DNA from: Eledone cirrhosa
Taxonomy: Eukaryota
NCBI GenBank assembly: GCA_964016885.1
Contig: OZ024744.1
Span: forward strand, 9,734,001 to 9,798,000
Direction: 5' to 3'
DNA length: 64,000 bases
Part shown: in pieces, positions 18,640 through 57,247 of the stretch
Position numbering within the stretch: position 1 is the stretch's first letter
Layout of the letters: each line of letters begins with the position of its first letter
Program-made: the position numbers and the translations under genes
Notes under the pieces: model-generated
Told to the model about the DNA's origin: nothing
Databases searched by the model: none
What the model saw: only the letters and a program-made list of their open reading frames with translations

Positions 18640-18650
18640 CAGAGGACCTC

Positions 18651-22261: not shown

Positions 22262-22784
22262 CCATAACGTATCCCTCTTATACCCAGTTCCCTTTCAACT
22301 CATCACATGTCCAAACCATTTCAGTCTTCTCTCCCACACACCACAACTTATCCCTCTTATACCCAGTTTCTCTCTCAATACATCACATGTCCATACCACC
22401 TCAGTCTTCTCTCCCACACACTACAACTAATCCTTCTTATACACAGTTTCTCTCTCAACACATCACATGTCCATACCATCTCAGTCTTCTCTACCACACA
22501 CTACAACTTATCCCTCTTATACCTAGTGTCTCTCTCAACACATCACATGTCCATACCATCTCAGTCTTCTCTCCTGTACACCATAACCTATCCCTCTTAT
22601 ACCCAGTCTCCCTCTCAACTCATCATATGTCCATACCATCTCAGTCTTCTCTCCCACACACTACAACTTATCCCTCTTATACACAGTTTCTCTCTCAACT
22701 CATCACATGTGCATACCATCTCAGTCTTCTCTCCTGCACACTTCAATTTATCCCTCTTATACCCAGTTTCTCTCTCGACTCATC
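22262..22784. repeat. 80-bp RTE-derived satellite, last units fused to the parent RTE
   Basis: About 6 units. The final unit continues without a break into RTE coding sequence at CATC 22781-22784. Confidence 0.95.
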
Positions 22785-28036: not shown

Positions 28037-29531
28037 ATGGCGAACAGTGAAGACAACACCCGCAGTACTGATGTAGCTGTAAATGATAGCCAAAATTTAA
28101 GTATTGTCGCTGCTAATGACGGGACTAAATCTGTTAAGGATATTAATGAGAGTCAATCGAGTTCGGTAGATGTTCATTATGATGCAAACAATGCGCCTGA
28201 TTGTGTTAATGTGGACATTAATCCTGTTAAAAATCGCTACAAGTCTAAAAAAACTGGAAGGTTAACATCTTTAAAAGACTATAAAAAAACATGGTTTAAT
28301 CCTCCCAGATATCAATCAAAGTATTTATATTATAAAAACCTTGACAGTTATTTTCCATTACTGACTAGAAGATTCCGATCAGCAATCTTTTTTATTATTC
28401 TCAGTACTATATTATGGAGTATTTTCTGTGGGGTTAACATCGACAAATTAGAATGGTGGTTTTCCTTCATTGTGGTCCTTCTGATTTTCATCGAACTTGC
28501 TTGCCTAGGATTCACATACACCTGGTTCTATCGGAAATTTTACATCATCCCATCAATATTTATGGGGCCTGGAATATGCATCACCATTCTGATAGTCTAT
28601 ATATTTCTTGATAACCCAAACTACGAGGTATCGACATTTGCAGCTTCAGTGACCATCATTATTTTAATGTATACCACCATACCACTGCCCTTAACGTTTA
28701 TATTCCCTGTTGGGATTATCCATTCGACATCTTTGGAAGTTATAAACGTGTTTAAATCCCCATCATCTTTTATTGCCACGGTAATAACCGGAAGGGTTTT
28801 GTTACATCTATGTCTACATATACTTGGTGGTTACTTATACATTATTTTACAAGTGCGACGACATAGTTTATTCCAAAAGCTTCAACAGTCGACACGAAAT
28901 AAACGGACACAGGAGGAAGATAAAAAAATAATTGAACGAATGTTACATTCTCTTATGCCACCCGCTGTTGCTAAAAATGTCATCGATTCTCAGCCTTCTG
29001 GTGATGGGGTTATAACATTCAGACCCTTCCAGATCGATAAAATCGACCATGTTAGCATCCTCTTTGCAGACATTGTGGGTTTCACTAAAATGAGTTCGAA
29101 TAAAACCGCTAAACATCTTGTGGACCTTTTAAGTGATTTATTTGGACGTTTTGATAAACTTTGTGAAACCCTAGGATGTGAAAAAATAAGTACTTTAGGG
29201 GACTGTTACTACTGCGTGTCTGGTTGCCCAGAAGCTAATAAGGACCATGCGAAATGCTGTGTTGAGATGGGCCTTCGTATGATTGAGGCCATACAGGAAT
29301 TTGATAAGGAAAATAACGAACAAGTTAATATGCGAGTTGGGGTCCACACAGGGACAGTCCTTTGTGGGATTGTCGGCTCAAAACAATTTAAATTTGATGT
29401 CTGGTCTAATGATGTTACCCTAGCAAACATCATGGAAGCAACTGGAAAACCTGGACGTGTTCATATTTCTAAAACTTCTTATGAGTACCTTGATGATGAA
29501 TATGAAGTTGAAGAGGGGGAAGACTGCGAAG
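28037..29531 (+). CDS. ADCY9: Adenylate cyclase type 9-like, large first coding exon (N-terminus, M1 transmembrane cluster, C1a catalytic domain)
   Basis: Hydrophobic helices, then VSILFADIVGFTKMSSNK, CEKISTLGDCYYCVSGCP, MRVGVHTGTVLCG, FKFDVWSNDV (AC9-type variants). AAAATGG start context. Donor AG|GTAAG at 29531/29532, phase 1. No later exons were recognised in the window. Confidence 0.92.
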
Positions 29532-29574
29532 GTAAGGTATCACATATTGTTTATTTTTTATTAACGTTTTAATA

Positions 29575-32500
29575 TTTACTGTGAATATGTATATATATAT
29601 ATATAGATTAATGTGAGGTATTATGTGAGGTAAAGCCTTTACTGTGAAAATACAATAGTATATATAGAGTAATGTAAATGTTATGTGAGATATTATGTGA
29701 GGTAAAGCCTTTACTGTGAAAATACAATAGTATATATAGAGTAATGTAAATGTTATGTGAGGTAAAGCCTTTACTGTGAAAATACAATATATATATAGAG
29801 TAATGTAAATGTTCTGTGAGGTTAAGCCTTTACTGTGAAAATACAATAGTATATATAGAGTAATGTAAATATTATGTGAGATATTATGTGAGGTAAAGCC
29901 TTTACTGTGAAAATACGATAGTATATATAGAGTAATGTAAATGTTATGTGAGGTAAAGCCTTTACTGTGAAAATACAATAGTATATATAGAGTAATGTAA
30001 ATGTTATGTGAGGTAAAGCCTTTACTGTGAAAATACAATATATATATAGAGTAATGTAAATGTTCTGTGAGGTTAAGCCCTTACTGTGAAAATACAATAG
30101 TATATATAGAGTAATGTAAATGTTATGTGAGATATTGTGAGGTAAAGCCTTTACTGTGGAAATACAATAGTATATATAGAGTAATGTAAATGTTATGTCA
30201 GGTAAAGCCTTTACTGTGAAAATACAATAGTATATATAGAGTAATGTAAATGTTATGTGAGATGTTATGTGAGGTAAAGACTTTACTGCGAAAATAGAAT
30301 AGTAAATATAGAGTAATGTAAATGTTATGTGAGATATTGTGAGGTAAAGCCTTTACTGTGGAAATACAATAGTATATATAGAGTAATGTAAATGTTATGT
30401 GAGGTAAAGCCCTTACTGTGAAAATACAATAGTATATATAGAGTAATGTAAATGTTATGTGAGGTAAAGCCTTTACTGTGAAAATACAATTGTATATATA
30501 GAGTAATGTAAATGTTATGAGATATTATATGAGGTGAAGCCTTTACTGTGAAAATACAATTGTATATATAGAGTAATGTAAATGTTATGTGAGGTAAAAC
30601 CCTTACTGTGAAAATACAATAGTATATATAGAGTAATGTAAATGTTATGTGAGGTTAAGCCCTTACTGTGACAATACAATAGTATATATAGAGTAATGTA
30701 AATGTTATGTGAGATATTATGTGAGATAAAGCCTTTACTGTGACAATACAATAGTATATATAGAGTAATGCAAATGTTATGGGAGATATTATGTGAGGTA
30801 AAGCCTTTACTGTGAAAATACAATGGTATATATAGAGTAATGTAAATGTTATGTGAGGTAAAGCCTTTACTGTGAAAATACAATAGTATATATATAGAGT
30901 AATGTAAATGTTATGTGAGATATGTGAGGTAAAGCCTTTACCGTGAAAATACAATAGCATATATAGAGTAATGTAAATGTTATGTGAGATATTATGTGAG
31001 GTAAAGCCTTTACTGTGACAATATAATAGTATATATAGAGTAATGTAAATGTTATGTGAGGTAAAGCCTTTATTGTGAAAATACAATAGTATATATAGAG
31101 TAATGTAAATGTTATGAGATATTATGAGGTAAAGCCTTTACTGTGAAAATACAATAGTATATATAGAGTAATGTAAACGTGATGAGATATTGGGTGAGGT
31201 AAAGTCTTTACTGTGAAAATGCTATAGTATATATAGAGTAATGTAAATGTTATGCGAGATATTATGTGAGGTAAAGCCTTTACTGTGAAAATACAATAGT
31301 ATATATAGAGTAATGTAAATGTTATGTGAGATATTATGTGAGGTAAAGCCTTTACTGTGAAAATACAATAGTATATATAGAGTAATGTAAATGTTATGCG
31401 AGATATTATGTGAGGTAAAGCCTTTACTGTGAAAATACAATAGTATATATAGAGTAATGTAAATGTTATGTGAGATATTATGTGAGGTAAAGACTTTACT
31501 GTGAAAATACAATAGTATATATAGAGTAATGTAAATGTTATGTGAGATATTATGTGAGGTAAAGCCTTTACTGTGAAAATACAATAGTATATATAGAGTA
31601 ATGTAAATGTTATGTGAGGTACTATGTGAGGTAAAGCCTTTACTGTGGAAATACAATAGTATATATAGAGTAATGTAAATGTTATGTGAGGTAAAGCCTT
31701 TACTGTGACAATACAATAGTATATATAGAGTAATGTAGATATTATGTGAGGTAAAGCCTTTACTGTGAAAATACAATAGTATATATAGAGTAATGTAAAT
31801 GTTATGTGAGGTACTATGTGAGGTAAAGCCTTTACTGTGTAAATACAATAGTATATATAGAGTAATGTAAATGTTATGTTGGATGTTATGTGAGGTAAAG
31901 CCTTTACTGTGAAAATACAATAGCATATATAGAGTAATGTAAATGTTATGTGAGGTACTATGTGAGGTAAAGCCTTTACTGTGAAAATACAATAGTATAT
32001 ATAGAGTAATGTAAATGTTATGTGAGATATTATGTGAGGTAAAGCCTTTACTGTGAAAATACAATAGTGTATATAGAGTAATGTAAATGTTATGTGAGAT
32101 ATTATGTGAGGTAAAGCCTTCACTGTGAAAATACAATAGTATATATAGAGTAATGTAAATGTTATGTGAGGTACTATGTGAGGTAAAGCCTTTACTGTGT
32201 AAATACAATAGTATATATAGAGTAATGTAAATGTTATGTTGGATATTATGTGAGGTAAAGCCTTTACTGTGAAAATACAATAGCATATATAGAGTAATGT
32301 AAATGTTATGTGAGGTACTATGTGAGGTAAAGCCTTTACTGTGAAAATACAATAGTGTATATAGAGTAATGTAAATGTTATGTGAGATATTATGTGAGGT
32401 AAAGCCTTCACTGTGAAAATACAATAGTATATATAGAGTAATGTAAATGTTATGTGAGATATTATGTGAGGTAAAGCCTTTACTGTGAAAATACAATAGT

Positions 32501-35500
32501 GTATATAGAGTAATGTAAATGTTATGTGAGGTAAAGCCTTCACTGTGAAAATACAATAGTATATATAGAGTAATGTAAATGTTATGTGAGATATTATGTG
32601 AGGTAAAGACTTTACTGTGAAAATACAATAGTATATATAGAGTAATGTAAATGTTATGTGAGATATGTGAGGTAAAGCCTTTACTGTGAAAATACAATAG
32701 TATATATAGAGTAATGTAAATGTTATGTGAGGTAAAGCCTTTACTGTGAAAATACAATATATATATAGAGTAATGTAAATGTTCTGTGAGGTTAAGCCTT
32801 TACTGTGAAAATACAATAGTATATATAGAGTAATGTAAATATTATGTGAGATATTATGTGAGGTAAAGCCTTTACTGTGAAAATACGATAGTATATATAG
32901 AGTAATGTAAATGTTATGTGAGGTAAAGCCTTTACTGTGAAAATACAATAGTATATATAGAGTAATGTAAATGTTCTGTGAGGTTAAGCCCTTACTGTGA
33001 AAATACAATAGTATATATAGAGTAATGTAAATGTTATGTGAGATATTGTGAGGTAAAGCCTTTACTGTGGCAATACAATAGTATATATAGAGTAATGTAA
33101 ATGTTATGTCAGGTAAAGCCTTTACTGTGAAAATACAATAGTATATATAGAGTAATGTAAATGTTATGTGAGATGTTATGTGAGGTAAAGACTTTACTGC
33201 GAAAATAGAATAGTAAATATAGAGTAATGTAAATGTTATGTGAGATATTGTGAGGTAAAGCCTTTACTGTGGAAATACAATAGTATATATAGAGTAATGT
33301 AAATGTTATGTGAGGTAAAGCCCTTACTGTGAAAATACAATAGTATATATAGAGTAATGTAAATGTTATGTGAGGTAAAGCCTTTACTGTGAAAATACAA
33401 TTGTATATATAGAGTAATGTAAATGTTATGAGATATTATATGAGGTGAAGCCTTTACTGTGAAAATACAATTGTATATATAGAGTAATGTAAATGTTATG
33501 TGAGGTAAAACCCTTACTGTGAAAATACAATAGTATATATAGAGTAATGTAAATGTTATGTGAGGTTAAGCCCTTACTGTGACAATACAATAGTATATAT
33601 AGAGTAATGTAAATGTTATGTGAGATATTATGTGAGATAAAGCCTTTACTGTGACAATACAATAGTATATATAGAGTAATGCAAATGTTATGGGAGATAT
33701 TATGTGAGGTAAAGCCTTTACTGTGAAAATACAATGGTATATATAGAGTAATGTAAATGTTATGTGAGGTAAAGCCTTTACTGTGAAAATACAATAGTAT
33801 ATATATAGAGTAATGTAAATGTTATGTGAGATATGTGAGGTAAAGCCTTTACCGTGAAAATACAATAGCATATATAGAGTAATGTAAATGTTATGTGAGA
33901 TATTATGTGAGGTAAAGCCTTTACTGTGACAATATAATAGTATATATAGAGTAATGTAAATGTTATGTGAGGTAAAGCCTTTATTGTGAAAATACAATAG
34001 TATATATAGAGTAATGTAAATGTTATGAGATATTATGAGGTAAAGCCTTTACTGTGAAAATACAATAGTATATATAGAGTAATGTAAACGTGATGAGATA
34101 TTGGGTGAGGTAAAGTCTTTACTGTGAAAATGCTATAGTATATATAGAGTAATGTAAATGTTATGTGAGATATTATGTGAGGTAAAGCCTTTACTGTGAA
34201 AATACAATAGTATATATAGAGTAATGTAAATGTTATGTGAGATATTATGTGAGGTAAAGCCTTTACTGTGAAAATACAATAGTATATATAGAGTAATGTA
34301 AATGTTATGCGAGATATTATGTGAGGTAAAGCCTTTACTGTGAAAATACAATAGTATATATAGAGTAATGTAAATGTTATGTGAGATATTATGTGAAGTA
34401 AAGCCTTTACTGTGAAAATACAATAGTATATATAGAGTAATGTAAATGTTATGTGAGATATTATGTGAGGTAAAGCCTTTACTGTGAAAATACAATAGTT
34501 TATATAGAATAATGTAAATGTTATGTGAGATATTATGTGAAGTAAAGCCTTTACTGTGAAAATACAATAGTATATATAGAGTAATGTAAATGTTATGTGA
34601 GATATTATGTGAGGTAAAGCCTTTACTGTGAAAATACAATAGTATATGTAGAGTAATGTAAATGTTATGTGAGGTAACGCCTTTACTGTGAAAATTCAAT
34701 AGTATATATAGAGTAATGTAAATGTTCTGTGAGGTTAAGCCCTTACTGTGTAAATACAATAGTATATATAGAGTAATGTAAATGTTATGTGAGGTATTGT
34801 GTGAGGTAAAGCCTTTACTGTGTAAATACAATAGTAAATATAGAGTAATGTAAATGTTATGTGAGATATTATGTGAGGTAAAGCCTTTACTGTGAAAATA
34901 CAATAGTATATATAGAGTAATGTGAATGTTATGTGAGATATTGTGAGGTAAAGCCTTTACTGTGGAAATACAATAGTATATAAAGAGCAATGTAAATGTT
35001 ATGTGAGGTAAAGCCTTTACTGTCAAAATACAATAGTATATATAGAGTGTTATGTGAGATATTATGTGAGGTAAAGACTCTACTGCGAAAATAGAATAGT
35101 AAATATAGAGTAATGTGAATGTTATGTGAGATATTGTGAGGTAAAGACTTTACTGTGGAAATACAATAGTATATATAGAGTAATGTAAATGTTATGTGAG
35201 ATATTATGTGAGTTAAAGCCTTTACTGTGAAAATACAATAGTATATATAGAGTAATGTAAACGTCATGTGAGATATTATGTGAGGTAAAGCCTTTACTGT
35301 GAAAATACAATAGTATATATAGAGTAATGTAAATGTTATGTGAGGTATTATGTGAGGTAAAGTCTTTACTGTGAAAATACAATAGTATATATAGAGTAAT
35401 GTAAATGTTATGTGAGATATTATGTGAGATAAAGCCTTTACTGTGAAAATACAATAGTATATAAAGAGTAATGTAAATGTCATACGAGATATTATGTGAG

Positions 35501-35685
35501 GTAAAACCTTTACTGTGAAAATACAATAGTATATATAGAGTCATGTAAATGTTATGTGAGATATTATGTGAGGTAAAGACATTACTGTGAAAATACAATA
35601 GTATATATAGAGTAATGTAAATGTTATGTGAGGTATTATGTGATGTAAAGCCTTTACTGTGACAATACAATAGTATATATAGAGT
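29575..35685. repeat. 60/72-bp AT-rich minisatellite in the adenylate cyclase intron
   Basis: Core GAGGTAAAGCCTTTACTGTGAAAATACAATAGTATATATAGAGTAATGTAAATGTTATGT with an optional 12-bp GAGATATTATGT module. Confidence 0.97.
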
Positions 35686-38600
35686 GATTTCTTTATTTGC
35701 CACTAGGGCACAAAAGGTAGGGACAGATACAAGGGCGGAAGTTTACATATAATTAACGAGTACAAAAATATAACAATGAAATAACAACAACAAACGAAGT
35801 CCTCAATAGGGAGGGGGCATTAACATGGGTCGCACACACCCCGGAAAAAATGTGCGACCCTTCTCCTCAGGAGCACAAAGAGTAGGTGCTTCCCTCGTCT
35901 CCTCTTTTTCCTCGTCTTTCACCTACAGGCTGATATAGAGAGAAGACCCATTCACTCTGGCCATTCTCCCTACTTTCACCCACCTTTCATAAAACTTGCT
36001 GGGGTAGAGCACCTCTCTCTCCATTCTGATCCTTCTTTTAAAACGGTATTTGAAAAAGGGGACCAGTTGTTGGCCGGAGAGAAAGGTGTCTGACCTCAGC
36101 CCTTTCAGCCTCGTCCACCATAGAACTTCTTTAGCCATGGCTATCACACAGAGAAAAACCGCCTCTCCTTCGTTTTTGAAAGGGGGAGGCGGTTTGATCT
36201 TGACAATGGACTCGGTGGTCAACCGGATTGGTCCCACCCTCGACAGTAGTTCCACATAGCCCCACAGGTTAGCAATGCCTGGGCAGTGTACGAATGCGTG
36301 CACAACGGTTTCGTCGTCATGCACGCATCTCGGATAGATCTTATTCAAAGGATCCCTACCCAGGCTCCCATGCCTGTGGAGCTTGTCTCGAACGGGTAGA
36401 GCCCCTCGGTAGCACTGCCAAGCCAGGGACTTTTGGAAGTTGTCCATCGGTCCAGGGCCAAACGTCCTACCAAACAGACTGGCCAGTTCATCTTCCTCCA
36501 TGCCTAGAGCTTCTCCGAGAGCATTGTCACACCTGCTGCGTACCAACTCTCTATAGAATGTCGAGGTGGAGTCTCCACTGATTGCCGGGTCCGCTTTCCA
36601 GAGGGCCGTGAGCGCCTGGGCACATTCAATGTGCCAGTCGCCCACTTTTCTCGGTCTTTGCTTGACCCAGGATTGCAGCTCGGTGAGCGAAACGAGTCTG
36701 GGAAAGGCTCGCCTCACAAACGGGGCCCACACCGGTTGACCAGTGAGGAATACCTGGAGGTGCCGTAGCCTTAATGCGTGTTTACGCATCTGTAGCCACG
36801 GCATCCCCAGCCCTCCTTTCGAAGGGTGTTGACAGCAGATGGATCTCCTCACCAAAGGGGTCCGCTTGTTCCAAAGAAATTGGAACAGCGCGTACTCCAT
36901 TTTGGCGAGTCTTTTCACTGGGCAAGGCACGACGGTCAAGCGGTAGTAGATGACGGATGCTATATAAGTATTCGCCACCTCCGCTCGACCTTTCAGGGAT
37001 AGTTTGCACTGGGCCCACTTCTCGGTCAGTGCAAACACCCTGGCCGTTATCTCGTTCCAGTTTTTCTCCTACTGGAGGTCTGGTCCGAACCAGACCCCAA
37101 GCAGCTTCACCGGGCCCTCCGTCCAGCGTCCGACGACGTTATTGGAGGGCATCGGTTTGCCTCTCCATGTTCCGAGTTGCAAACCAACGGACTTGTCCCG
37201 GTTCAGCTTGGCTCCTGCAAACCTTTCATATTCCTCCAGTAAGGTGCCGATCTCACCGATTTGCGAGGTTTTCGACACCATTACTGTCACGTCATCGGCG
37301 TAGGCCGACGCCGCTTTCTGCAATCCCGGTTCCAAAGGGATGCCCTGCAACCGCTCCAACTTCCGCAGTAGTGGCTCAAGAGCCAGCACATACAGAAGGG
37401 AGGAGAGAGGGCATCCCTGTCGGATGGATCGCATGATTTGGAATGGCCCCGAGAGGTGGCCGTTCACCTTGACCCTTGAGCAGACGTTGCTGCTGTGCAT
37501 CGCAGCAATCCAACCCCTGAAAACGGGTCCGAAGCCTGCCGCCGCGAGCACCGCATCCAGGTAACGATGGTCAACCCTATCGAAAGCTTTAGATTGATCC
37601 AAGTTGATCAGGGCCCCACCAAAGCCGGGTTCATTCCCTACCCTCTCTATGATGTATCGCATAAGGTGGAGATTGTCGTGAATGGACCTGGACGGGATTG
37701 CGCATGTCTGCGCTTCTCCCACCAGGTTTCCGACGACAAGCGCCAACCTCTTCGCTAACACCTTGGCCAAAATCTTTAACTCTGTATTTAGCAGAGTTAT
37801 GGGCCTGAAGTTACTTATGTCATCCCCCTTGTTCTCATCCTTCCTCACCAGCGTAACTACGCCCTTGGTCACAGAACTGGGAATTCTCCCGTTCTGCTGC
37901 CAGTTGCAGTAGACCGCTTCGAGGATATCGGAGAACAAGTCCGGCATCGCTACATATAACTCGTATGGTAGACCATCGAGACCCGGGGATTTGCGTTTGC
38001 CGCATTGGCTCAGCGCCGCCCCTATCTCAGCAGCAGAAATCGGCCTTTAGCAGGACTTTGCCTCCCCGTCCGAGAGGCGCGGCAGACTGTCGAGGTATAG
38101 ATTGAAATCCATAGTCTCACCCGGCGCGCCGCCCCTCCCGAACAGTCGTGCAAAGTGCCGCTGAAAGGCCGCACACATCTGCCCAGGTTCAAGGATCACA
38201 CGCCCATCCTGGTCCTTCAAAGACCGAATCGTGGACTTGTTCCCACTTTTTGCCTCTGTCACTCGGGCCCAGCTCACAGCTTTGGCTCCCTCATTACCCA
38301 GAGCACGTATTTTACTCCTGACATGTACCCATGGGAGGTCGGGTACCCTGTATTACTGCGTGACGCCAGAAGACACACGACCGTGACTTCTGGCGTCACG
38401 CAGTAATACAGGGTACCCGACCTCCCATGGGTACATGCTGAAGCATATAAACAATATGCCCCCCACCGCAAGGTGGTCGTGGAGGTGCCACGGCAAAAAA
38501 GCACCCAGCCCACACTGTAAAGTGGACGTGTAGGCGCCACGAAAAAGCACCCAGCACTCACTGTAAATGAGGTTGGTGTTAGGAAGGGCATCCAGCTGTA

Positions 38601-41600
38601 GAAATCAAGCCAGATCAGTTCCTGTATGAGCAAGGCATGGTCAGCCGACCAGACACTGCCCACAACAGGACAACCCGTCTAACCCATGCTAGCGTGGAAG
38701 AACGGACGTAAAACGGTGATGATGATGATGATGATGACAACGCAGCCTTCATGCTTCACCTCAAAGAACTGGTCTAAGGCCATTCTTGATGCCAGCACGC
38801 CGGCTACATTGCCACTCCTAATCGCCTCTTCTACTCTATCTACTAATTCCCTTTCCGTCTTGTTCCTATCCCTTGCTAATTCCTGACTAAAACCTATCGA
38901 TTCTATTCTAATTGCTCTCCTAAGAGAGCTCCACCACCTGTTGTTGACAATTGCCCCTGTCAAACTCTGCTTAACTAACGTGCTAATCCGTTTACTGTAA
39001 GCTTTGCTTGGCGGTAAGGACAAGTTCAGCTTCCAGTAACCGGGTCCCTGTCTATGGGTTCTATCAAGGTGGCTATGCAGGTCACTAACTTGTGATCCGA
39101 ATAGTCAACCATGAACATTTTTGGACAGCTAAATGTGTCCCTATCCTTCTCTCTAACTAGGACCCTATCTATGTACGACCTAGATGTTCCGCTGCGATTG
39201 GTCCACGTCCATAGTGGTACAGTCGGAAAATCTAGTCGATATCTATCGGCCAGGTCAAATCGGCCGATTAACCTTTTGAGGCTTTTGCATACCCCTCTAT
39301 TGGCACATGCCCCTACATAGTCCCAACGTGCATCCAGGATACCATTCCAGTCCCCCACTAAAAGCAAGGAGCGGGACGTTCCCAGAAAAGTTTCCAGACA
39401 TTGGAAGTATTCCGGCCACGCTGCCCAAAAAGGGGCGTACACAGCAATTAGTCTAAGGGCCCCACTTTCACTACTGCCGACGTCTAAAACCACCATTCGA
39501 CCCTCCGTGCCCAGGTGCACCTTCTGTATGGCGAGGCCCAGGTGTTTTCGCAGCAGAACGACAACTCCACCCCCCGGTTGACAGAGAGATGCGAAGATCT
39601 CAAAGTCGTCGAAGAGGGGTGCCAGTTGGTGCTCGCTGCTGATCCTGGACTCGCAAATAGCCATTACATCCATTCTATGCGACCCGAGATCGTTTAAAAG
39701 TTTGCCTTGTTTCCAAGACAGTCCCAGGCCGCGTACATTCAGACACCCAACTCTTATATCAGCCATGTTGGTTAAAAGAGGAAGGACCTACCTGTTCGGC
39801 TCCTGAGGAGCATGTTGCACAATATCCATGGGCGTATTGGAGGGATTGTTTGGTGGGGTGTTGTTCTGTGGTGGAGTGGGGGTGTTTGGTGAGGTGTGGG
39901 TGGGGAAACGTTTCAAGAGGACGCGTTATAGGGTCGAGTACATGTTTTCCCCACGTCCTCAGGAAAGTTCTCTCTTAGTTTTGCATAGGTGTCCATTGGG
40001 AGTCTTATCATTTTTAAATGCGGTTTGTTGGCCGCGCTTGCAAAGAATTGCCCTTCAGTTTCCACCGAAGGGTCTTTGTGTATTGTTTTTACTAGTTCTT
40101 TGTTATTTGTGTTAATGTATGTATACTGTTTTATTTGTATTGTGTTTGTGTTTGTTTGTTGTTCTTGTGTGTGCTTACGTTTTGTTGTATGTGTTATGTT
40201 TTGGGGTGGGGCGAATTTTGTTTGTTCTGTTTGTTGGTGGTTGTGTGTTTGTTTCGTTTATGTTCGAGTGGTGCTTTCTTTTTTTCCTTTTTACAGGTTG
40301 GAAGAGTCCCCCCTCTTCGTCACTAGGTGCCGTTTCAGCTGGGTCCTCATCCGTGCTGTCGGGTAGTGGTGTATTTTGGGGTTTTGTTGTGTTTGTGTGT
40401 GTTTTTGGAGTTGTTTTGGGTGGGACCGTGTCTTGTGTTATTTTTCCGTGTTGTTTTTGTTGTTGTTGTTGTTTGTGTGTTTGTTTCGTTTATGTTCGAG
40501 TGGTGCTTTCTTTTTTTCCTTTTTACAGGTTGGAAGAGTCCCCCCTCTTCGTCACTAGGTGCCGTTTCAGCTGGGTCCTCATCCGGGCTGTTGGGTAGTG
40601 GTGTATTTTGGGGTTTTGTTGTGTTTGTGTGTGTTTTTGGAGTTGTTTTGGGTGGGACCGTGTCTTGTGTTATTTTTCCGTGTTGTGTTTGTTGTTGTTG
40701 TGGTGGTGGTGGTGGTGGTGGTGGTGGCGGTGGTGGTGTGTGGGGTGTAGGCAAAAGAGCCTTATTTTTTGTCAATTGAGGACAGGCAGCCCTTAGATGA
40801 CCCCTGCTTGAACAGTAGTAACATATGGGCCTCCTACCCTCGGCTGAAATGTATATAAATGTTTCTCCATCGAGGGATACCCTCTGTGGTATTCTAGCTA
40901 TTCGTTCTGGTCTCATTTGGACCAGAACCTCCATGCTCAAACTGCCGAAAATGTCTGTGGTGACTTCTGCTACTGAGAGGATTCCGTCCTCGTCTTCTAA
41001 AAATCCTGTTAGTACCTAGGAAATGCATGCATTTGGCCGGATTCCGGAGACCCTTATCTTCTGCGTTCTTTTCCCTAAATATGTGGGGAAAAATGTGTGT
41101 AGCTTGGAAACAATTGGCGCCACAGAGTATTTCCTGGCCGTCAATTGATCCTTCATTAGCACCGTTATATTCCCATAGAGTGGCCCTTTTTGTATGAACG
41201 ATATATCACTCCACACATTTTTTAGGACCAGCTCAATTTCTTTTTGGGATAATTGAGCTGGTTTCCTTGTTATGTTGGAAATTGTTCTGAAAGATATCGT
41301 TCTTAGTGTCGTGTCTCTTTTGATTTCTTGTGGGGAGGTGATTGTGAAGTCTCCTTCTTTGAAAGTTACATACTGTTTTGCATCCTTCATCTTTTCTCTC
41401 AGAGTTGTAATGTCCAGTTGCTTGCAGGTCTATGTTTTCCGGACCTTCTGTGCAAAGGAGGCACCAGTAGTGGGTTCGCTTTGTTTACTGTTATCGTTAT
41501 TTTTTCCTTGGTTGGTGTTGTGACTATTGCTGTTATTGTCATTGTTGTTTTTGTCTGCGTTTATGTGACTTTCTGGATTTTCACCCATTTTTACAAATGT

Positions 41601-41951
41601 TTCTTTTAATTCTGTGTTCCATGTTTCTTCTGCAGAAGTGAGGAGGGAAGACTTAGAGCCTTGTGCTTCTAGCTTCTCTGTATCACCTTTCTTAGGGGGC
41701 GTGGCTTTCTCGTTAGGATGAGATGTGAAAATTCCGTCCATTTCTATCAGTTTGCCGTAATAAATTTTTAACTGGAAAATTCACCCTAAAAAGGGGCGAA
41801 AATAAATAAACTCAAAGTTTGACGACCCAGGCAAGGGGTTAACGTATATTACAGTAGAAAAAAATTAATCAAAACTTGCTTTTGAGTAAGTAAATCCAAC
41901 TCGGTAGCCGAGCTTGTTCACACACGTCAACACACGTCTCTCGTATACGAC
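35686..41951 (-). mobile_element. Tx1/L1-clade LINE, apparently full length, defective (copy 1)
   Basis: ORF1 with CYYCSSRGHLRAAC knuckle (from 41741). ORF2 from 39766: APE endonuclease (CLNVRGL, YAP, GDWN, SDH), RT (NFRPITLLN, QGCPLS, YADD), C-terminal Cys/His motif. 3' end AAATAAAGAAAT. Confidence 0.95.
38324..38734 (+). mobile_element. 5'-truncated RTE 3'-end insertion nested in Tx1 copy 1
   Basis: Matches 56795-57165, ends in a (TGA)n tail, TGACA duplicated at 38319-38323 and 38735-38739, absent from Tx1 copy 2. Confidence 0.9.
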
Positions 41952-42327
41952 ATGTTATGTGAGATATTATATGAGGTAAAGCCTCTACTGTGAAAATACA
42001 ATAGTATATATAGAGTAATGTAAATGTTATGTGAGGTATTATGTGAGGTAAAGCCTTTACTGTCAAAATACAATAGTATATATAGAGTAATGTAAATGTT
42101 ATGTGAGATATTATGTGAGGTAAAGCCTTTACTGTGAAAATACAATAGTATATATAGAGTAATGTAAATGTTATGTGAGGTATTATGTGAGGTAAAGCCT
42201 TTAATGTGAAAATACAATAGTATATATAGGGTAAAGGCTTTACCTCACATAACATTTACATTACTCTATATATACTATTGTATTTTCACAGTAAAAACTT
42301 TACCTCACATAATATCTCACATAACAT
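41952..42327. repeat. 60/72-bp minisatellite spacer containing the strand-inversion point (about 42230)
   Basis: Forward units run to ..TATATAGG, then reverse-complement units begin GTAAAGGCTTTACCTCAC. Confidence 0.93.
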
Positions 42328-45300
42328 CTCGTATACGAGAGATGTGTGTTGACGTGTGTGAACAAGCTCGGCTACCGAGTTGGATTTACTTACTCAAAAG
42401 TGAGTTTTGATTTATTGTTTTTGTACTGTAATATACGTTAACCCCTTGCCTTGGTCGTCAAACTTTGAGCTTATTTATTTTCGCCCCTTTTTGGGGCGAA
42501 TTTTCCATTCAAAAATTTGTTACGGCAAACTGATAAAAATGGACGGAATTTTCACATCTCATCCTAACGAGAGCAATAGTCACAACACCAACAACAGCAA
42601 TACTCACAACAACAACCAAGAAAAAAATGAAAAAAATAACGATAACACCAAACAAAGCCAAACCCACTACTGGTGCTTCCTTTGCACAGGCGGTCCGAAA
42701 AACACAGACCTGCAAGCAACTGGACATTACAACTCTGAGAGAAAAGATGAAAGAAGCAAAACAGTATGTAACTTTCAAAGAAGGAGGAGACTTCACAATC
42801 ACCTCCCCACAAGAAATCAAAAGAGACACGACACTAAGAACGATATCTTTCAGAACAATTTCCAACATAACAAGGAATCCAGCTCAATTATCCCAAAAAG
42901 AAATTGAGCTGGTCCTAAAAAATGTTTGGAGTGATATATCGTTCATACAAAAAGGGCCACTCTATGGGAATATAACGGTGCTAATGAAGGATCAATTGAC
43001 GGCCAGGAAATACTCTGTGGCGCCAATTGTTTCCAAGCTACACACATTTTCCCCCACATATTTAGGGAAAAGAACGCAGAAAATAAAAGTCTCCGGAATC
43101 TGGCCAAATGCATGAAGTTCCTGGGTACTAACAGGATTTTTAGAAGACGAGGACGGAACCCTCTCAGTAGGAGAAGTCACCACAGACGTTTTCGGCGGTT
43201 TGAGCATGGAGGTTCTGGTCCAAATGAGACCAGAACGAATAGCTAGAATACCACAGAGGGTGTCCCTCGATGGAAAAACATTTTTATACATTTCAGCCGA
43301 GGGCAGGAGGCCCATATGATACTACTGTCAAGCAGAGGTCATCTAAGGGCTGCCTGTCCTCAATTGACAAAAAAAAAGGCTCTTTTGCCTACACCCCACA
43401 CACCACCACCGCCACCGCCACCACCACTACCACCACCACAACAACAAAAAAAACAATAACAACAACAACAACAAAAACAACACGGAAAAATAACACAAGA
43501 CACGGTCCCACCCAAAACAACTCCAAAAACACACACAAACACAACAAAACCCCAAAATACACCACTACCCGACAGCATGGACGAGGACCCAGCTGAAACG
43601 GCACCTAGTGACAAAGAGGGGGAACCCTTCCAACCTGTAAAAAGAAAGAAAAGAAAACACCACTCGAACATAAACGAAACAAACACACAAACAACAACAA
43701 AAACAAAACAAACAGAACAAACAAAATCCACCCCACCCCAAAACATAACACACACAAGAACAACAAACAAACACAAACACAATACAAATAAAACAGTATA
43801 CATACATTAACACAAATAACAAAGAACTAGTAAAAACAATACACATAAACCTTTCGGTGGAAACTGAAGGGCAATTCTTTGCAAGTGCGGCCAACAAACT
43901 GCATTTAAAAATGATAAGACTCCCAATGGACACCTATGCAAAACTAAGAGAGAACTTTCCTGAGGATGTGGGGAAAACATGTACTCGACCCTATAACCGC
44001 GTCCTCTTGAAACGTTTCCCCACCCACACCTCACCAAACACCCCCACTCCACCACAGAACAACACCCCACCAAACAACCCCTCAAATACGCCCATGGATA
44101 TTGTGCAACATGCTCCTCAGGAGCCGAACAGGTAGGTCCTTCCTCTTTTAACCAACATGGCTGATATAAGAGTTGGGTGTCTGAATGTACGCTGCCTGGG
44201 ACTGTCTTGGAAACAAGGCAAACTTTTAAACGATCTCAGGTCACATAGAATGGATGTAATGGCTATTTGCGAGTCCAGGATCAGCAGCGAGCACCAACTG
44301 GCGCCCCTCTTCGACGACTTTGAGATCTTCGCATCTCTCTGTCAACCGGGGTGTGGGGGTGGAGTTGTCGTTCTGCTGCGAAAACACCTGGGCCTCGCCA
44401 TACAGAAGGTGCACCTGGACCCGGAGGGTCGAATGGTGGTTTTAGACGTCGGCAGTAGTGAAAGTGGAGCCCTTAGACTAATAGCTGTGTACGCCCCTTT
44501 TTGGGCAGCGTGGCCGGAATACTTCCAACGTCTGGAATCGTCCCGCTCCTTGCTTTTAGTGGGGGACTGGAATGGTATCCCATAGACAGGGACCCGGTTA
44601 CTGGAAGCTGAACTTGTCCTTACTGACAAGCAAAGCTTACAGTAAACGGATTAGCACATTAGTTAAGCAGAGTTTGACAGGGGCAATTGTCAACAACTGG
44701 TGGTGGAGCTCTTTTAAGAGCGCAATTAGAATAGAATCGATAGGTTTTAGTCAGGAATTAGCAAGGGATAGGAACAAGACGGAAAGGGAATTAGTAGATA
44801 GAGTAGAAGAGGCGATTAGGAGTGGCAATGTAGCCGGCATGCTGGCATCAAGAATGGCCTTAGACCAGTTCTTTGATGTGAAGCACGAGGGCTGCGTTGT
44901 CAGGAGTAAAATACGTGCTCTGGGTAATGAGGGAGCCAAAGCTGTTAGCTGGGCCCGAGTGACAGAGGCAAAAAGTGGGAACAAGTCCACGATTCGGTCT
45001 TTGAAGGACCAGGATGGGCGTGTGATCCTTGAACCTGGGCAGATGTGTGCGGCCTTTCAGCGGCACTTTGCACGACTGTTCGGGAGGGGCGGCGCGCCGG
45101 GTGAGACTATGGATTTCAATCTATACCTCGACAGTCTGCCGCGCCTCTCGGACGGGGAGGCAAAGTCCTGCTAAAGGCCGATTTCTGCTGCTGAGATAGG
45201 GGCGGCGCTGAGCCAATGCGGCAAACGCAAATCCCCGGGTCTCGATGGTCTACCATACGAGCTATATGTAGCGATGCCGGACTTGTTCTCCGATATCCTC

Positions 45301-47534
45301 GAAGCGGTCTACTGCAACTGGCAGCAGAACAGGAGAATTGCCAGTTCTGTGACCAAGGGCGTAGTTACGCTGGTGAGGAAGGATGAGAACAAGGGGGATG
45401 ACATAGGTAACTTCAGGCCCATAACTCTGCTAAATGCAGAGTTAAAGATTTTGGCCAAGGTGTTAGCGAAGAGGTTGGCACTTGTCGTCGGAAACCTGGT
45501 GGGAGAAGTGCAGACAAGCACAATCCCATCCAGGTCCATTCACGACAATCTCCACCTTATGCGATACATCATAGAGAGGGTAGGGAATGAACCCTGCTTT
45601 GGTGGGGCCCTGATCAACTTGGATCAATCTAAAGCTCTCGATAGGGTTGACCATCGATACCTGGATGCGGTGCTCGCGGCGGCAGGCTTCGGACCCGTTT
45701 TCAGGGGTTGGATTGCTGCAATGCACAGCAGCAACGTCTGCTCAAGGGTCAAGGTGAACGGCCACCTCTCGGAGCCGTTCCAAATCATGCGATCCATCCG
45801 ACAGGGATGCCCTCTCTCCTCCCTTCTGTATGTGCTGGCTCTTGAGCCACTACTGCGAAAGTTGGAGCGGTTGCAGGGCATCCCTTTGGAACCGGGATTG
45901 CAGAAAGCGGCGTCGGCCTACGCCGATGACGTGACAGTAATGATGTCGAAAACCACGCAAATCGGTGAGATTGGCACCTTACTGGAGGAATATGAAAGGT
46001 TTACAGGAGCCAAACTGAACCGGGACAAGTCCGTCGGTTTGCAACTCGGAACATGGAGAGGCAAACCGATGCCCTCCAATAACGTCGTCGGACGTTGGAC
46101 GGAGGGCCCGGTGAAGCTGCTTGGGGTCTGGTTCGGACCAGACCTCCAGGTGGAGAAAAACTGGAACGAGGTAACGGCCAGGGTGTTTGCACTCGCCCAG
46201 AAGTGGGCCCAGTGCAAAACTATCCCTGAAAGGTCGAGCGGAGGTGGCGAACGCTTATATAGCATCCGTCATCTACTACCGCTTGACCGTCGTGCCTTGC
46301 CCAATGAAAAGACTCGCCAAAATGGAGTGCGCGCTGTTCCACTTTCTTTGGAACAAGTGGACCCCTTTGGTGAGGAGATCCATCTGCTGTCAACACCCTT
46401 CGAAAGGAGGGCTGGGGATGCCGTGGCTACAGATGCGTAAACACGCATTAAGGCTACGGCACCTCCAGGTATTCCTCACCGGTCAACCGGCGTGGGCCCC
46501 GTTTGTGAGGCGAGCCTTTCCCAGACTCGTCTCGCTCACCGAGCTGCAATCCTGGGTCAAGCAAAGACCGAGAAAAGTGGGCGACTGGCACATTGAATGT
46601 GCCCAGGCGCTCACGGCCTTCTGGAAAGTGGACCCGGCAATCAGTGGAGATTCCACCTCGACATTCTATAGAGGGTTGGTACGCAGCAGGTGCGACGATG
46701 CTCTTGGAGAAGCTCTAGGCATGGAGGAAGATGAACTGGCCAGTCTGTTTGGTAGGACGTTTGGCCCTGGACCGATGGACAACTTCCAAAAGTCCCTGGC
46801 TTGGCAGTGCTACCGAGGGGCTCTACCCGTTCGAGACAAGCTCCACAGGCATGGGAGCCTGGGTAGGGATCCTTTGAATAAGATCAGTCCAAGATGCGTG
46901 CATGACGGCGAAACCGTTGCGCACGCATTCATACACTGCCCAGGCATTGCTGACCTGTGGGGCTATGTGGAATGACTACTGTCGAGGGTGGGACCAATCC
47001 GGTTGACCACCGAGTCCATTGTCAAGATCAAACCGCCTCCCCCTTTCAAAAACGAAGGAGAGGCGGTTTTTCTCTGTGTGATAGCCATGGCTAAAGAAGT
47101 TGTATGGTGGACGAGGCTGAAATGGCTGAGGTCAGACACCTTTCTCTCCGGCCAACAACTGGTCCGCTTTTTCAAATACCATTTTAAAAGAAGGATCAGT
47201 ATGGAGAGAGAGGTGCTCTACCCCAGCAAGTTTTATGAAAGGTGGGTGAAAGTAGGGAGAATGGCCAGAGTGAATGGGTCTTCTCTCTATATCAGCCTGT
47301 AGGTGAAAGAAGATGAAAAAGAGGAGACGAGGGAAGCACCTACTCTTTGTGCTCCTGAGGAGAAGGGTTGCATATTTTTCCGGGGTGTGTGCGACCCATG
47401 TTAATGTCCCCTCCCTATTGAGGACTTCGTTTGTTGTTATTTCATTTTTATAATTTTGTACTCGTTAATTATACGTAAACTTCCCCCCTTGTATCTGTCC
47501 CTACCTTTTGTGCCCTGGTGGCAAATAAAGAAAT
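42328..47534 (+). mobile_element. Tx1/L1-clade LINE, defective (copy 2, inverted relative to copy 1)
   Basis: Same 5' end (TCGTATACGAGAGA..) and 3' end as copy 1. ORF2 44157-47302 with deletions in ORF1 and the endonuclease and frameshifts. Confidence 0.95.
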
Positions 47535-48095
47535 TACTCTATATATACTATTGTATTTTCACAGTAAAGGCTTTACCTCACATAACATTTACATTACTCT
47601 ATATACCATTGTATTTTCATAGTAAAGGCTTTACCTCACATAATATCTCACATAACATTTACATTACTCTATATATGCTATTGTATTTTCACAGTAAAGG
47701 CTTTACCTCACATAATATCTCATATAACATTTACATTACTCTATATATACTATTGTATGTTCACAGTAAAGGCTTTACCTCACATAATATCTCACATAAC
47801 ATTTACATTACTCTATATACTATTGTATTTTCACAGTAAAGGCTTTACCTCACATAATGTCTCTCATAACATTTATATTACACTATATATACTATTGTAT
47901 TTTCACAGGAAAGGCTTTGCCTCACATAATACCTCACATAACATTTACATTACTCTATATATACTATTGTATTTTCACAGTAAAGGCTTTGCCTCACATA
48001 ATATCTCGCATAACATTTACATTACTCTATATATACTATTGTATTTTCACAGTAAAGGCTTTACCTCACATAATATCTCACATAATCTTCTCACA
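47535..48095. repeat. 60/72-bp minisatellite, reverse orientation
   Basis: Reverse complement of the 29575-35685 unit. Confidence 0.95.
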
Positions 48096-48297
48096 TAGTA
48101 TTGAATCTTTGAGATTTTGATGATATTATTTATTTTGAGAATAATACCTTAACATAGGAATGAGTGATTAGTTATGGCCGGTTTGAACAGAAGGAGGTGA
48201 GGGATTTCTGGCTGGGTATAGCTGGGTTAAATGTTAAAGGGTCAGCAAGTTTATTTTTAAAATGAAGTTTACTAATAAGGAAAAAACAGGGGGAAAA

Positions 48298-48789: not shown

Positions 48790-49095
48790 AGATGGTAAAA
48801 GTCTGATGTCTCGACAGAGGCCAAACAAACCCCGGTATTTGTTTATTTTACGTTGTTCAATGAAGCAGGCTATGATGCCGGGGTTTGTGGCTGAAGCAAC
48901 TAAATTGGAGATGGAGAAGGTGTTGTAGCAGCTGGCGTCCCAGATGAAGGATCTACCTCCTTCGAATGGGAAGAAGGTGATTCTGTCGTGGCTCTTGCCA
49001 TCTCCTCAGTCTAGACAACCTGGTTCCAGTTGAGATGGAAAGCCAGACTCCTCTTTACTCACCGATCTTGCAAAAGAGCTTGGCAGTATGGGGTC
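48790..49095 (-). mobile_element. Degenerate CRE-like (restriction-like endonuclease) non-LTR fragment
   Basis: Manual translation GFPSQLEP..GDGKSHDRITFFPFEGGRSFIWDASCYNTFS..EQRKINKY..VET. Confidence 0.65.
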
Positions 49096-49109
49096 CAAAT
49101 ATTTTCTAT

Positions 49110-52072
49110 ACACACAAAATTATTAACCATCTTGCCAACAACAACTATGAGTGCCTTTTGGATTTCCATGTGTCTAACACACGTGGGCATGCCAACAAAG
49201 TCAGAAAACAGCCCAGTTCTCATGACTTTCGGAAACATTTTTTCACATTCAGAGTTGCTGAAGCATGGAACAAACTACCTGCATCAGTTGTTAGCTGTCG
49301 AGACACTGCATCCTTTAAAACCTCCATGGAAAAAACTACCTGCACCAGTTATTAGCTGTCGAGACACTGCATTCTTTAAAACCTCCATGGAACAAACTAC
49401 CTGCATCAGTTGTTAGCTGTCAAGACACTGCATCCTTTAAAACCTCCATGGAACAAACTACCTGCATCAGTTATTAGCTGTCGAGACACTGCATTCTTTA
49501 AAAACTCTATAGAACAAACTACCAGCATCAGTTGTTAGCTGTCGAGACACTGCATCCTTTAAAACCTCCATGGAACAAACTACCTGCATCAGTTGTTAGC
49601 TGTCGAGACACTGCATCCTTTAAAACCTCCATGGAACAAACTACCTGCATCAGTTATTAGCTGTCGAGACACTGCATCCTTTAAAACCTCCATGGAACAA
49701 ACTACCTGCATCTGTTGTTAGCTGTCGAGACACTGCATCCTTTAAAACCTCCATGGAACAAATTACCTGCATCAGTTATTAGCTGTCGAGACACTGCATC
49801 CTTTAAAACCTCCATGGAACAAACTACCTGCATCTGTTGTTAGCTGTCGAGACACTGCATCCTTTAAAACCTCCATGGAACAAATTACCTGCATCAGTTA
49901 TTAGCTGTCGAGACACTGCATTCTTTAAAACCTCTATGGAACAAACTACCAGCATCAGTTGTTAGCTGTCGAGACACTGCATCCTTTAAAACCTCCATGG
50001 AACAAGCTACCTGCATCAGTTATTAGCTGTCGAGACACTGCATCCTTTAAAACCTCCATGGAACAAACTACCTGCATCAGTTGTTAGCTGTCGAGACACT
50101 GCATCCTTTAAAACCTCTATGGAACAAACTACCTGCATCAGCTGTTAGCTGTCGAGACACTGCATCCTTTAAAACCTCCATGGAACAAACTACCTGCATC
50201 AGTTGTTAGCTGTCGAGACACTGCATCCTTTAAAACCTCCATGGAACAAACTACCTAAATCAGTTGTTAGCTGTCGAGACACTGCATCCTTTAAAACCTC
50301 TATGGAACAAACTACCTGCATCAGTTGTTAGCTGTCGAGACACTGCATCTTTTAAAACCTCCATGGAACAAGCTACCTGCATCAGTTATTAGCTGTCGAG
50401 ACACTGCATCCTTTAAAACCTCCATGGAACAAACTACCTGCATCAGTTGTTAGCTGTCGAGACACTGCATCCTTTAAAACCTCTATGGAACAAACTACCT
50501 GCATCAGCTGTTAGCTGTCGAGACACTGCATCCTTTAAAACCTCCATGGAACAAACTACCTGCATCAGTTATTAGCTGTCGAGACACTGCATCCTTTAAA
50601 ACCTCTATGGAACAAACTACCAGCATCAGTTATTAGCTGTCGAGACACTGCATCCTTTAAAACCTCCATGGAACAAACTACCTGCATCAGTTGTTAGCTG
50701 TCGAGACACTGCATCCTTTAAAACCCCCATGGAACAAACTACCTGCACCAGTTGTTAGCTGTCGAGACACTGCATCCTTTAAAACCTCCATGGAACAAAC
50801 TACCTGCACCAGTTGTTAGCTGTCGAGACACTGCATCCTTTAAAACCTCCATGGAACAAACTACCTGCACCAGTTGTTAGCTGTCGAGACTCTGCATCCT
50901 TTAAAACCTCCATGGAACAAACTACCTGCATCAGTTGTTAGCTGTCGAGACACTGCATCCTTTAAAACCTCCATGGAACAAACTACCTGCACCAGTTGTT
51001 AGCTGTCGAGACACTGCATCCTTTAAAACCTCCATGGAACAAACTACCTGCATCAGTTGTTAGCTGTCGAGACACTGCATCCTTTAAAACCTCCATGGAA
51101 CAAACTACCTGCACCAGTTGTTAGCTGTCGAGACACTGCATCCTTTAAAACCTCCATGGAACAAACTACCTGCATCAGTTGTTAGCTGTCGAGACACTGC
51201 ATCCTTTAAAACCTCCATGGAACAAACTACCTGCATCAGTTGTTAGCTGTCGAGATACTGCATCCTTTAAAACCTCCATGGAACAAACTACCTGCATCAG
51301 CTGTTAGCTGTCGAGACACTGCATCCTTTAAAACCTCCATGGAACAAGCTACCTGCATCAGTTGTTAGCTGTCGAGACACTGCATCCTTTAAAACCTCCA
51401 TGGAACAAACTACCTGCATCAGTTGTTAGCTGTCGAGACACTGCATCCTTTAAAACCTCCATGGAACAAACTACCTGCATCAGTTGTTAGCTGTCGAGAC
51501 ACTGCATCCTTTAAAACCTCCATGGAACAAACTACCTGCATCAGTTGTTAGCTGTCGAGACACTGCATCCTTTAAAACCTCCATGGAACAAAACTACCAG
51601 CATCAGTTGTTAGCTGTCGAGACACTGCATCCTTTAAAACCTCCATGGAACAAACTACCTGCATCAGTTGTTAGCTGTCGAGACACTGCATCCTTTAAAA
51701 CCTCCATGGAACAAACTACCTGCATCAGTTATTAGCTGTCGAGACACTGCATCCTTTAAAACCTCCATGGAACAAACTACCTGCATCAGTTGTTAGCTGT
51801 CAAGACACTGCATCCTTTAAAACCTCCATGGAACAAACTACCTGCATCAGTTGTTAGCTGTCAAGACACTGCATCCTTTAAAACCTCCATGCTTCCTGAG
51901 ATTCGCCAACACTACACCTGATATTCCCCCTCCATACACACACATGTATATCATGACTCATACACTATTCACTCCCTTGACATTTGTATATTATTCTATG
52001 TACTATACATGCACCTTTGACGAGTTGTAGTGCACCTGAGCACTGTGCACAATATTTTCATTATTATCATTA
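49110..52072 (+). mobile_element. CR1 LINE 3' end containing an internal tandem expansion
   Basis: HKIINH..TRGH..RVAEAWNK before the array. MLPEIRQHYT*, 3' UTR and ATT-like tail after it. Confidence 0.9.
49264..51891 (+). repeat. 61-bp tandem array, about 43 highly similar copies
   Basis: Unit CATGGAACAAACTACCTGCATCAGTTGTTAGCTGTCGAGACACTGCATCCTTTAAAACCTC. First CATG at 49264, last at 51888. Confidence 0.98.
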
Positions 52073-52575
52073 GGCCGTTGCGAAAGAGGTTATATGGTGG
52101 ACGAGGTTGAAAGGACTGAAGACAGACACTTTTCTCTTCGGCTAATCCCTCATCAACTTCTTCAAGTTTCACCTGGAAAGGAAGGTGAGGGTGGAGAGAG
52201 AAGTGCTGCCCCCTAGTACATTTGCTAAAAGGTGGATGAATGTGGCGAGAATGCCCCGTTTGAATGGGCCTACTCTGACCATGCGCCTATAGGCTAGCTA
52301 ACTTGAGGAGAGGGGTGCTCTCCCTGGGTGGCCGAGAAGCGCAGGGTGGTTCAGGATTGGTGGGGTACCTGAGTCACCCCTGGGTCGTCCACCACCTATA
52401 GGGGAATTTATTTTGTTATATTTATGCATAGTTTATTTTATATTTTTTTATATCTTCATTGTTGAATTAGTCTTGCCATTGTGCACTTTTACTCGACCTT
52501 ATTGTAAACCCCCACTGTCCCTGTCTTTGTATCGTCCCCTACATGTCGGCTCTTGTGGCTAATAAATGAAATCAT
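52073..52575 (+). mobile_element. Tx1-related LINE 3' fragment
   Basis: AVAKEVIWWTRLKGL..EREVL, similar to the Tx1 ORF2 C-terminus. Ends TTGTGGCTAATAAA. Confidence 0.8.
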
Positions 52576-57165: not shown

Positions 57166-57247
57166 TTATATATATATATATAAAATATGTATATATATAA
57201 ATATGTTTATATATATATATATATATATGAGATCATGATCGATTTCA

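Follow-up and report, generated by a model that had tools for sequence, protein, structure and literature searches.

How does a retrotransposon come to face a copy of itself, with the same nonsense codon in both copies and the same junctions at their ends? We addressed this question at a locus of the cephalopod Eledone cirrhosa, in 64,000 nucleotides of genomic DNA (hereafter the window; NCBI GenBank assembly GCA_964016885.1, contig OZ024744.1, positions 9,734,001 to 9,798,000 of the forward strand). Inside an intron of an adenylate cyclase type 9-like gene (ADCY9), two head-to-head long interspersed nuclear elements (LINEs) of putative Tx1 type lie in a satellite and form a near-palindrome of about 13 kb. 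An earlier note, made from the sequence alone, had proposed one dead insertion followed by inverted duplication. We consider a different history probable, in which two independent LINE insertions into one array of a miniature inverted-repeat transposable element (MITE) were followed by an inversion of about 12.6 kb and by gene conversion between neighbouring copies.

Self-BLAST of the window returned inverted matches spanning 35114-48093 at 91-97% identity. Sequence reading and repeat mapping gave the same structure, and the head-to-head arrangement of LINEs and satellite described in the earlier note was thus confirmed. The left array is 6.1 kb long, however, rather than 0.6 kb, so that the structure extends far leftward of the start at about 35100 given in the note. 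The note's spacer of less than 400 bp corresponds to the 376 bp between the LINE 5' ends; this gap, however, is itself inverted satellite, whose strand switches at 42230/42231 and whose apex is a 24-base loop (42207-42230). The parts are as follows, in window coordinates.

28037-29531, + strand: large first coding exon of the ADCY9-like gene, with a GT donor at 29532
29561-29579, + strand: likely decayed left end of the host MITE (TTAA and terminal inverted repeat), fused to the flipped array
29575-35688, + strand: array of 6.1 kb built from the MITE's internal repeat of 72 bp (and 60 bp), flipped relative to the host
35689-41951, − strand: left LINE, full length, sub-lineage B (B-type at 21 of 26 marker sites)
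37960-38274, − strand: left copy of a 315-bp identical tract holding the TAA, likely the recipient of gene conversion
38324-38734, unstranded: later short-repeat insertion of 411 bp in the left LINE
41952-42230, + strand: inner satellite, 3.9 units, the host's original first units if the array was inverted
42207-42235, unstranded: strand switch and apex of the palindrome, at the unit's own 5-bp inverted repeat around a 24-base core
42231-42327, − strand: inner satellite in the host's normal orientation
42328-47535, + strand: right LINE, both ends retained, mostly sub-lineage A (A-type at 17 of 26 marker sites)
44947-45261, + strand: right copy of the 315-bp tract holding the TAA, likely the donor
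47536 to about 48101, − strand: outer satellite, about 8 units, normal orientation
48092-48245, + strand: unique tail of the host MITE with its right terminal inverted repeat at 48228-48241

The two arms carry separate damage. The left LINE is broken by the 411-bp insertion, by two stops and, at 40231-40708, by a tandem duplication of 232 bp. The right LINE has lost about 160 bp near 42572 and some 280 bp at 44579; it also carries the TAA and, near 46217, a frameshift. This arm-specific insertion, duplication and set of deletions bear out the earlier view that the palindrome is no read fold-back artefact. Private substitutions in both arms were mostly C>T and G>A, as in neutral decay, and a domain scan detected remnants of the endonuclease, reverse transcriptase and zf-RVT in each. 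Both LINE copies are dead. The 411-bp insertion is 95% identical to window 56795-57166 and has a 116-bp self-complementary end and a GAT-repeat end.

The shared nonsense codon was likewise confirmed. TAA stands at 45172-45174 (+) and at 38049-38047 (−), and it is not spread over dispersed copies, since all 28 other copies examined read GAA at this position. Its 20-base context had exactly two matches in the 3.0-Gb genome, one per arm, in an exact search that would miss copies with another change within those bases. Among 62 copies, 10 sites (the TAA and nine others) were common to the arms alone. Such sites would be expected if a single dead LINE had been inverted and duplicated by fold-back at a short inverted repeat and had later exchanged sequence with dispersed copies, and the position of the apex, exactly at a short inverted repeat with a 24-base loop, also favours such an event.

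Matching junctions, in contrast, are no proof of duplication, because the LINE inserts at one fixed base. Genome-wide, CATAACAT of the 72-bp repeat directly precedes 288 of the 296 exact LINE 5' ends, and every LINE junction in the fetched copies lies at one base of this repeat, in one orientation. Exact family 3' ends numbered 325; a shorter 3' motif joined to the repeat, a pattern not nested with the former, gave 334 matches. Of 30 loci collected with a less strict 3' motif, 20 had the 3' end of this family and all of these ran into the repeat; the remaining 10 belonged to sister families with other 3' ends, mostly running into TC/TATC microsatellites. All 20 further family copies chosen by 3' end retained the 5' end, and the exact 11-base upstream flank was present in 44 of 46 full-length copies. 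A 301-base query of the genome yielded 2519 candidates, 40 of which were scored. One base, one orientation and a multicopy target are the marks of a target-specific Tx1 element, and the family shows all three.

We then compared the arms with the rest of the family. They differ at 174 of 5153 aligned columns (96.6% alike), and at 31 sites they are discordant where each allele is held by at least 3 other copies. In 2000 runs of simulated duplicates with CpG rates raised tenfold, such sites averaged 10 and never exceeded 21. At the 26 markers that separate group A, a clade of the 41-row tree, from group B, a set of older copies outside that clade, the left arm has 21 B-type and 4 A-type sites and the right arm 17 A-type and 9 B-type; the arms are unlike at 15 of the 26, 14 of them in one direction. 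The divergence between the arms (3.4%) equals that between the right arm and unrelated copies and exceeds that between the left arm and unrelated copies (2.3%). No variants common in register were found in the flanking satellite units, of which few were parsed on the right and several were merged by the parser. All of these results tell against one dead insertion followed by inverted duplication. Judged from these sequences, the arms likely come from different sub-lineages, and so from independent insertions.

Gene conversion between neighbours likely accounts for the TAA that the arms share. The arms are identical over 315 bp at the longest stretch, against an average longest run of 166 across 10000 shuffles (P 0.0027), and the left arm carries A-type alleles within this tract and B-type alleles on both sides of it. 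Recombinant copies are frequent in the LINE family. Although 1729 of the 1891 copy pairs share no private site, a pair of C1 tandem neighbours shares 15, the arms 10, two tandem pairs 7 and 6, one dispersed pair 5, a C8 pair 5 and a C10 tandem pair 4; six of these seven top pairs are neighbours in one array, four of them tandem. Sites are shared in the same manner by tandem neighbours that belong to different sub-lineages, which again speaks against a fold-back origin. Private-site sharing is a general property of neighbouring copies.

The satellite itself proved to be the internal repeat of a TTAA-flanked MITE. Its arrays begin with TTAA and a terminal repeat and finish with a tail of 140 bp, followed by the terminal repeat in reverse and by TTAA, and the genome holds 7918 exact left ends. 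Of 25 hosts chosen by left end, 14 were single-unit, 8 expanded and 3 truncated or interrupted; two, both expanded, carried a LINE. The single-unit host is non-coding and about 225 bp long where the right end was located. Co-oriented stacks of 2 to 6 LINEs per host are common. Flanking TTAA and short terminal inverted repeats that begin with CCC are the hallmark of piggyBac-type MITEs, and the host, which has both, appears to be a non-autonomous member of this type. A foldback transposon with the satellite as its long inverted arms was ruled out, as all intact hosts examined contain the repeat in a single orientation.

In the window, both ends of the MITE copy are decayed. A single right end of the host is present (48092-48245), an intact left end is absent, and the left array lacks a tail. 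At 29561, a 14-mer differs from the host left end by 4 mismatches; 1 of 744 background sites was as close, and P was about 5e-4 from local composition. The repeat unit contains a 5-bp inverted repeat, TTACT / AGTAA, around the 24-base core. Inversion of everything from the TTACT of the first unit to an AGTAA at a distance of 12.6 kb would yield the observed centre junction bar one substitution, and the observed left junction bar a 5-bp loss and edge decay. Related junctions were detected elsewhere. At C15:34.81 Mb (L186) and C17:40.25 Mb (L193), the core of 24 bases has been inverted in place between the same 5-bp repeats, and the left junction type recurs once, at C10:866747. Genome-wide, a flip at the GTAAAG core of the unit that forms an exact, perfect palindrome had 0 matches; a mismatched GTAAAG-core flip lies at C8:33.01 Mb. 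At C15:34.81 Mb the inverted unit has spread to 7 copies within a higher-order repeat. The C8 locus (33.00-33.02 Mb, L137-L138) is a tail-to-tail LINE pair with a strand switch at the GTAAAG core and a 5' LINE fragment between, and its repeated unique flank suggests a local inverted duplication.

The history that we consider probable would run as follows. Its starting point is visible in the repeats: a TTAA-flanked non-coding transposon of about 225 bp lies in the ADCY9 intron, and its internal unit has expanded to an array. LINEs would have entered this array in the observed pattern, at one base, in one orientation and nearly always full length, and an insertion of sub-lineage B and one of sub-lineage A would have landed in tandem, so that the host before the flip would be an ordinary two-LINE stack. 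An event of recombination or template switching, with endpoints at TTACT in the first unit and at AGTAA in a distant one, would then have inverted a segment (29580-42230) made up of the first units, the left LINE and the 6-kb array. Of the two resulting junctions, one would lie at the left terminal repeat and its reciprocal at 42231. A template switch and a break with rejoining at microhomology would be equally likely mechanisms. Before or after the flip, short conversion tracts would have passed between the neighbours, the 315-bp tract with the TAA moving from right to left.

Several observations weigh against this history. The arms were sisters in a tree of 41 rows (support 84/99) and in a tree on 3.3 kb (76/55), and over the whole length of 62 rows their sisterhood was not rejected (P value of the approximately unbiased test, p-AU, 0.63). 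When the 315-bp tract was removed, sisterhood was rejected (p-AU 0.037), in a test made post hoc and with only 20 of the 62 rows; the tract-free tree placed the left arm with B and young copies at 100/99 and the right arm outside. The sister relationship expected in the earlier note thus appears in whole-length trees, weakly or ambiguously, and is lost without the tract. The right arm is a mosaic, with 9 of 26 sites B-type, as are several dispersed copies, and the sub-lineage labels are not clean; the B-type sites of the right arm may stem from its source or from left-to-right conversion. At the junctions, the left terminal repeat is only approximate with its 4 mismatches, the left junction requires the 5-bp loss, and the right host flank reads TCAG where other copies have TTAA. 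No read or contig was seen across the junctions, or tying the tract to arm-specific sites.

The main rival is a deletion between two separate head-to-head MITE hosts, each with a LINE, in which both left ends and the spacer were removed at AGTAA microhomology. It accounts for independent sub-lineages equally well, and a comparable pair exists at C10:40.29-40.31 Mb (L168-L170), where two complete hosts stand head-to-head about 1 kb apart with arms 98.8% alike over 6 kb and zero privately shared sites. However, the left host would also have to lose its tail: the left array has neither a tail nor a right terminal repeat, there is no space for one before the exon, and repeat-like sequence extends to within 14 bases of the TTAA and left-end look-alike. 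We therefore regard this deletion as unlikely. Fold-back duplication of a single LINE is more improbable still and already largely refuted; its apex, the sites private to the arms and the weak sister grouping in whole-length trees are outweighed by the discordant sites, the markers, the divergences and the satellite units. An assembly product, with arm reads mixed in the consensus or the array joined the wrong way round, is conceivable at a repeat-rich locus whose junctions no read or contig was seen to span, but is highly improbable in view of both junctions lying at one built-in inverted repeat, one with its own substitution, of the 174 arm differences and the large private indels, which persist as far as the tract, and of the recurrence of the same junction types at other loci.

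The account of two insertions, an inversion and conversion rests on a LINE family with features of its own. By its ORF2 (the second open reading frame, ORF), with apurinic-type endonuclease, reverse transcriptase and C-terminal zinc motif, the element can be classed as a probable L1-group non-LTR (long terminal repeat) retrotransposon. In the intact copy L045, Exo_endo_phos, RVT_1 and zf-RVT scored above the Pfam cut-off, and the best solved relative of ORF2 was human LINE-1 ORF2p (E 2e-53, vs 3e-23 for R2). ORF1 has 621 codons, with a zf-CCHC match (E 0.0075) below the Pfam cut-off. Named hits were Argonauta, fish and Xenopus proteins; no match named Tx1 was present among 73 relatives, nor among the best 120 of 908. 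Both ORFs are open in 12 of 62 sampled copies and some copies are almost identical, so the family was recently active. Young, near-identical LINEs reside in mutually different hosts, as expected for retrotransposition into existing hosts. Relative to the repeat unit, 5 to 7 target bases are absent at the LINE junction, or a duplication is masked by the repeat period, and the final two LINE bases differ by sub-lineage. A general long target duplication was ruled out, as several private variants on both sides were found only in L051 among 46 junction pairs.

Further features of the family were noted. In L051 (C4:78.18-78.19 Mb), one unit stands on either side of the LINE, with 54-base stretches holding 5 common private variants, as a long target duplication would. 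Truncation at the 5' end is nearly absent family-wide (296 exact 5' vs 325 exact 3' ends), and the near-invariant 11-base flank may be copied from the element RNA or required by the endonuclease. ORF1 and ORF2 of L045 (1928-7252) share a frame, with one TAG between them and a Met seven codons on, a candidate for readthrough or reinitiation. On C1, exact LINE 5' ends number 22 at 0.5-31 Mb and 8 at 423-434 Mb, with zero between; the interval 31-60 Mb holds 79 of the first 100 host left ends there. Expanded arrays may be a requirement of the LINE, and such arrays may be distal.

The palindrome lies within an adenylate cyclase intron, as the earlier note had presumed. The exon at 28037-29531 matches Pfam Guanylate_cyc (E 1e-60), and its best relative is an Argonauta ADCY9-like protein (81%). 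The downstream exons that the note had suggested locating were found: the next begins at window-equivalent 79977 and three more extend to about 192600, giving an intron of 50.4 kb around the palindrome. A contig of run X3, a run of unrecorded kind whose sample is distinct from that of runs X1 and X2, exits the first exon at the GT donor and continues into the next exon. The ADCY9-like gene is therefore spliced across the 50.4-kb intron in that sample, whose donor individual may or may not carry the palindrome. Runs X1 and X2 gave no contig matched to the ADCY9 exon, an absence that can be false. Host MITE copies without a LINE, in normal orientation, also occur in ADCY9 introns at window-equivalent 76237 (L124) and 111089 (L127).

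Transcription of the + strand would place the LINE in the intron first antisense and then sense, 376 bp apart, with a longest predicted perfect run of 315 bp. The ADCY9 pre-mRNA would be predicted to fold into a duplex of about 5-6 kb, 96-97% paired. The long double-stranded RNA anticipated in the earlier note is thus a fair prediction. Repeats near oppositely oriented copies were the main targets of adenosine-to-inosine (A-to-I) editing in most animals of the sample studied in 10.1101/2020.01.19.911685, which had an octopus among its species; by analogy, editing at the palindrome would therefore be likely but ordinary. When runs X3, X1 and X4 were mapped on the left arm, they returned the whole LINE family rather than the single locus, in unstranded contigs, and the main X3 contig over the left arm carried a sense codon at the TAA position. 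Family-wide, A>G and T>C changes were balanced in run X3 (45 and 46), as they were in the DNA run X4 (81 and 94).

Other repeats surround the palindrome and its host gene. Upstream of the ADCY9 exon, 80-bp satellite arrays occupy window 3049-14457, 20355-21017 and 22266-22784, and ORFs at 516-2760 and 15530-18666 (−) resemble LTR retrotransposon gag, protease, reverse transcriptase and integrase by eye. At 49264-51891, a 61-bp tandem array of 43 copies has a unit that encodes C-terminal words of the adjacent LINE-like ORF at 48981-49355, and this satellite is apparently derived from a LINE 3' end. Fragments of the 3' part of sister LINE families (about 70% DNA identity) lie at 52074-52289 and 62013-62635, the latter followed by TATC-like repeats.

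The nearest known parallel is from Xenopus, whose Tx1L lands in tandem repeats of Tx1D. In Xenopus laevis, Tx1L sits inside Tx1D, which the passages of PMC4494074 on this pair call piggyBac family; the same arrangement is described in parts of PMC6719617 and PMC1950540. As far as these passages go, both systems comprise an L1-group LINE with endonuclease and reverse transcriptase at a fixed site in a non-autonomous DNA transposon, and the hosts may be alike too, given the piggyBac label of Tx1D and the TTAA flanks and CCC-starting terminal repeats in Eledone. Unlike Tx1L as described there, the present family is from a mollusc, has another target and shows no target duplication of ordinary size, and the comparison is one of arrangement, not orthology. 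Crocodilian Tx1-Mar and Tx1-9_AMi are likewise Tx1-type LINEs preferring a site in a DNA transposon, but their hosts are Mariner and Harbinger elements and they show a preference rather than a tandem-repeat target (PMC4494074). Our literature searches found no paper on a Tx1-type family of cephalopods with a MITE repeat as its target. The family may be present in Repbase, in Dfam or in the supplements to PMC4494074 and PMC13282606, and in the sections of PMC13282606 on Octopus vulgaris repeat annotation L1-Tx1 is listed only in a table.

For the rearrangements there are also precedents. Template switching as outlined in part of PMC8604942 inverts a spacer flanked by short inverted repeats, and the 24-base core, inverted at two loci here, is such a spacer; unlike those short-range events, the flip in the window would use repeat copies 12.6 kb apart. 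The palindromes treated in part of PMC3403216 undergo arm-to-arm gene conversion, likewise a sequence exchange between inverted arms, but the present arms are 96.6% alike, with short tracts and no gene, and tandem neighbours exchange equally. With the editing substrates of 10.1101/2020.01.19.911685 the locus would share nearby inverted repeats in pre-mRNA, editing here being predicted.

Taken on its own, the palindrome is a by-product and well explained, and the target-specific LINE family is the more interesting object. What is added to knowledge is a likely inversion-plus-conversion origin for a palindrome; the LINE-in-MITE system parallels that of Xenopus. An easy misreading is also corrected: identical junctions and a shared stop look like duplication, which they are not when a site-specific LINE is combined with conversion. 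The locus offers a clean case of a nonsense mutation that was likely passed between two independent insertions. It is distinctly doubtful, yet conceivable, that the LINE and the MITE inversion site together form a recurrent generator of LINE palindromes several kilobases long, in which stacked copies are flipped, neighbours exchange inactivating mutations and intronic hairpin RNA from both strands silences the still-active family; if true, the palindrome in a transcribed ADCY9 would be a trap that a parasite of a parasite has made for itself. For tests of intronic editing in a lineage with heavy A-to-I editing, the locus is a ready substrate. With about 300 copies, nearly all full length, and a single target base, the family makes a tractable model of sequence-specific retrotransposition in cephalopods.

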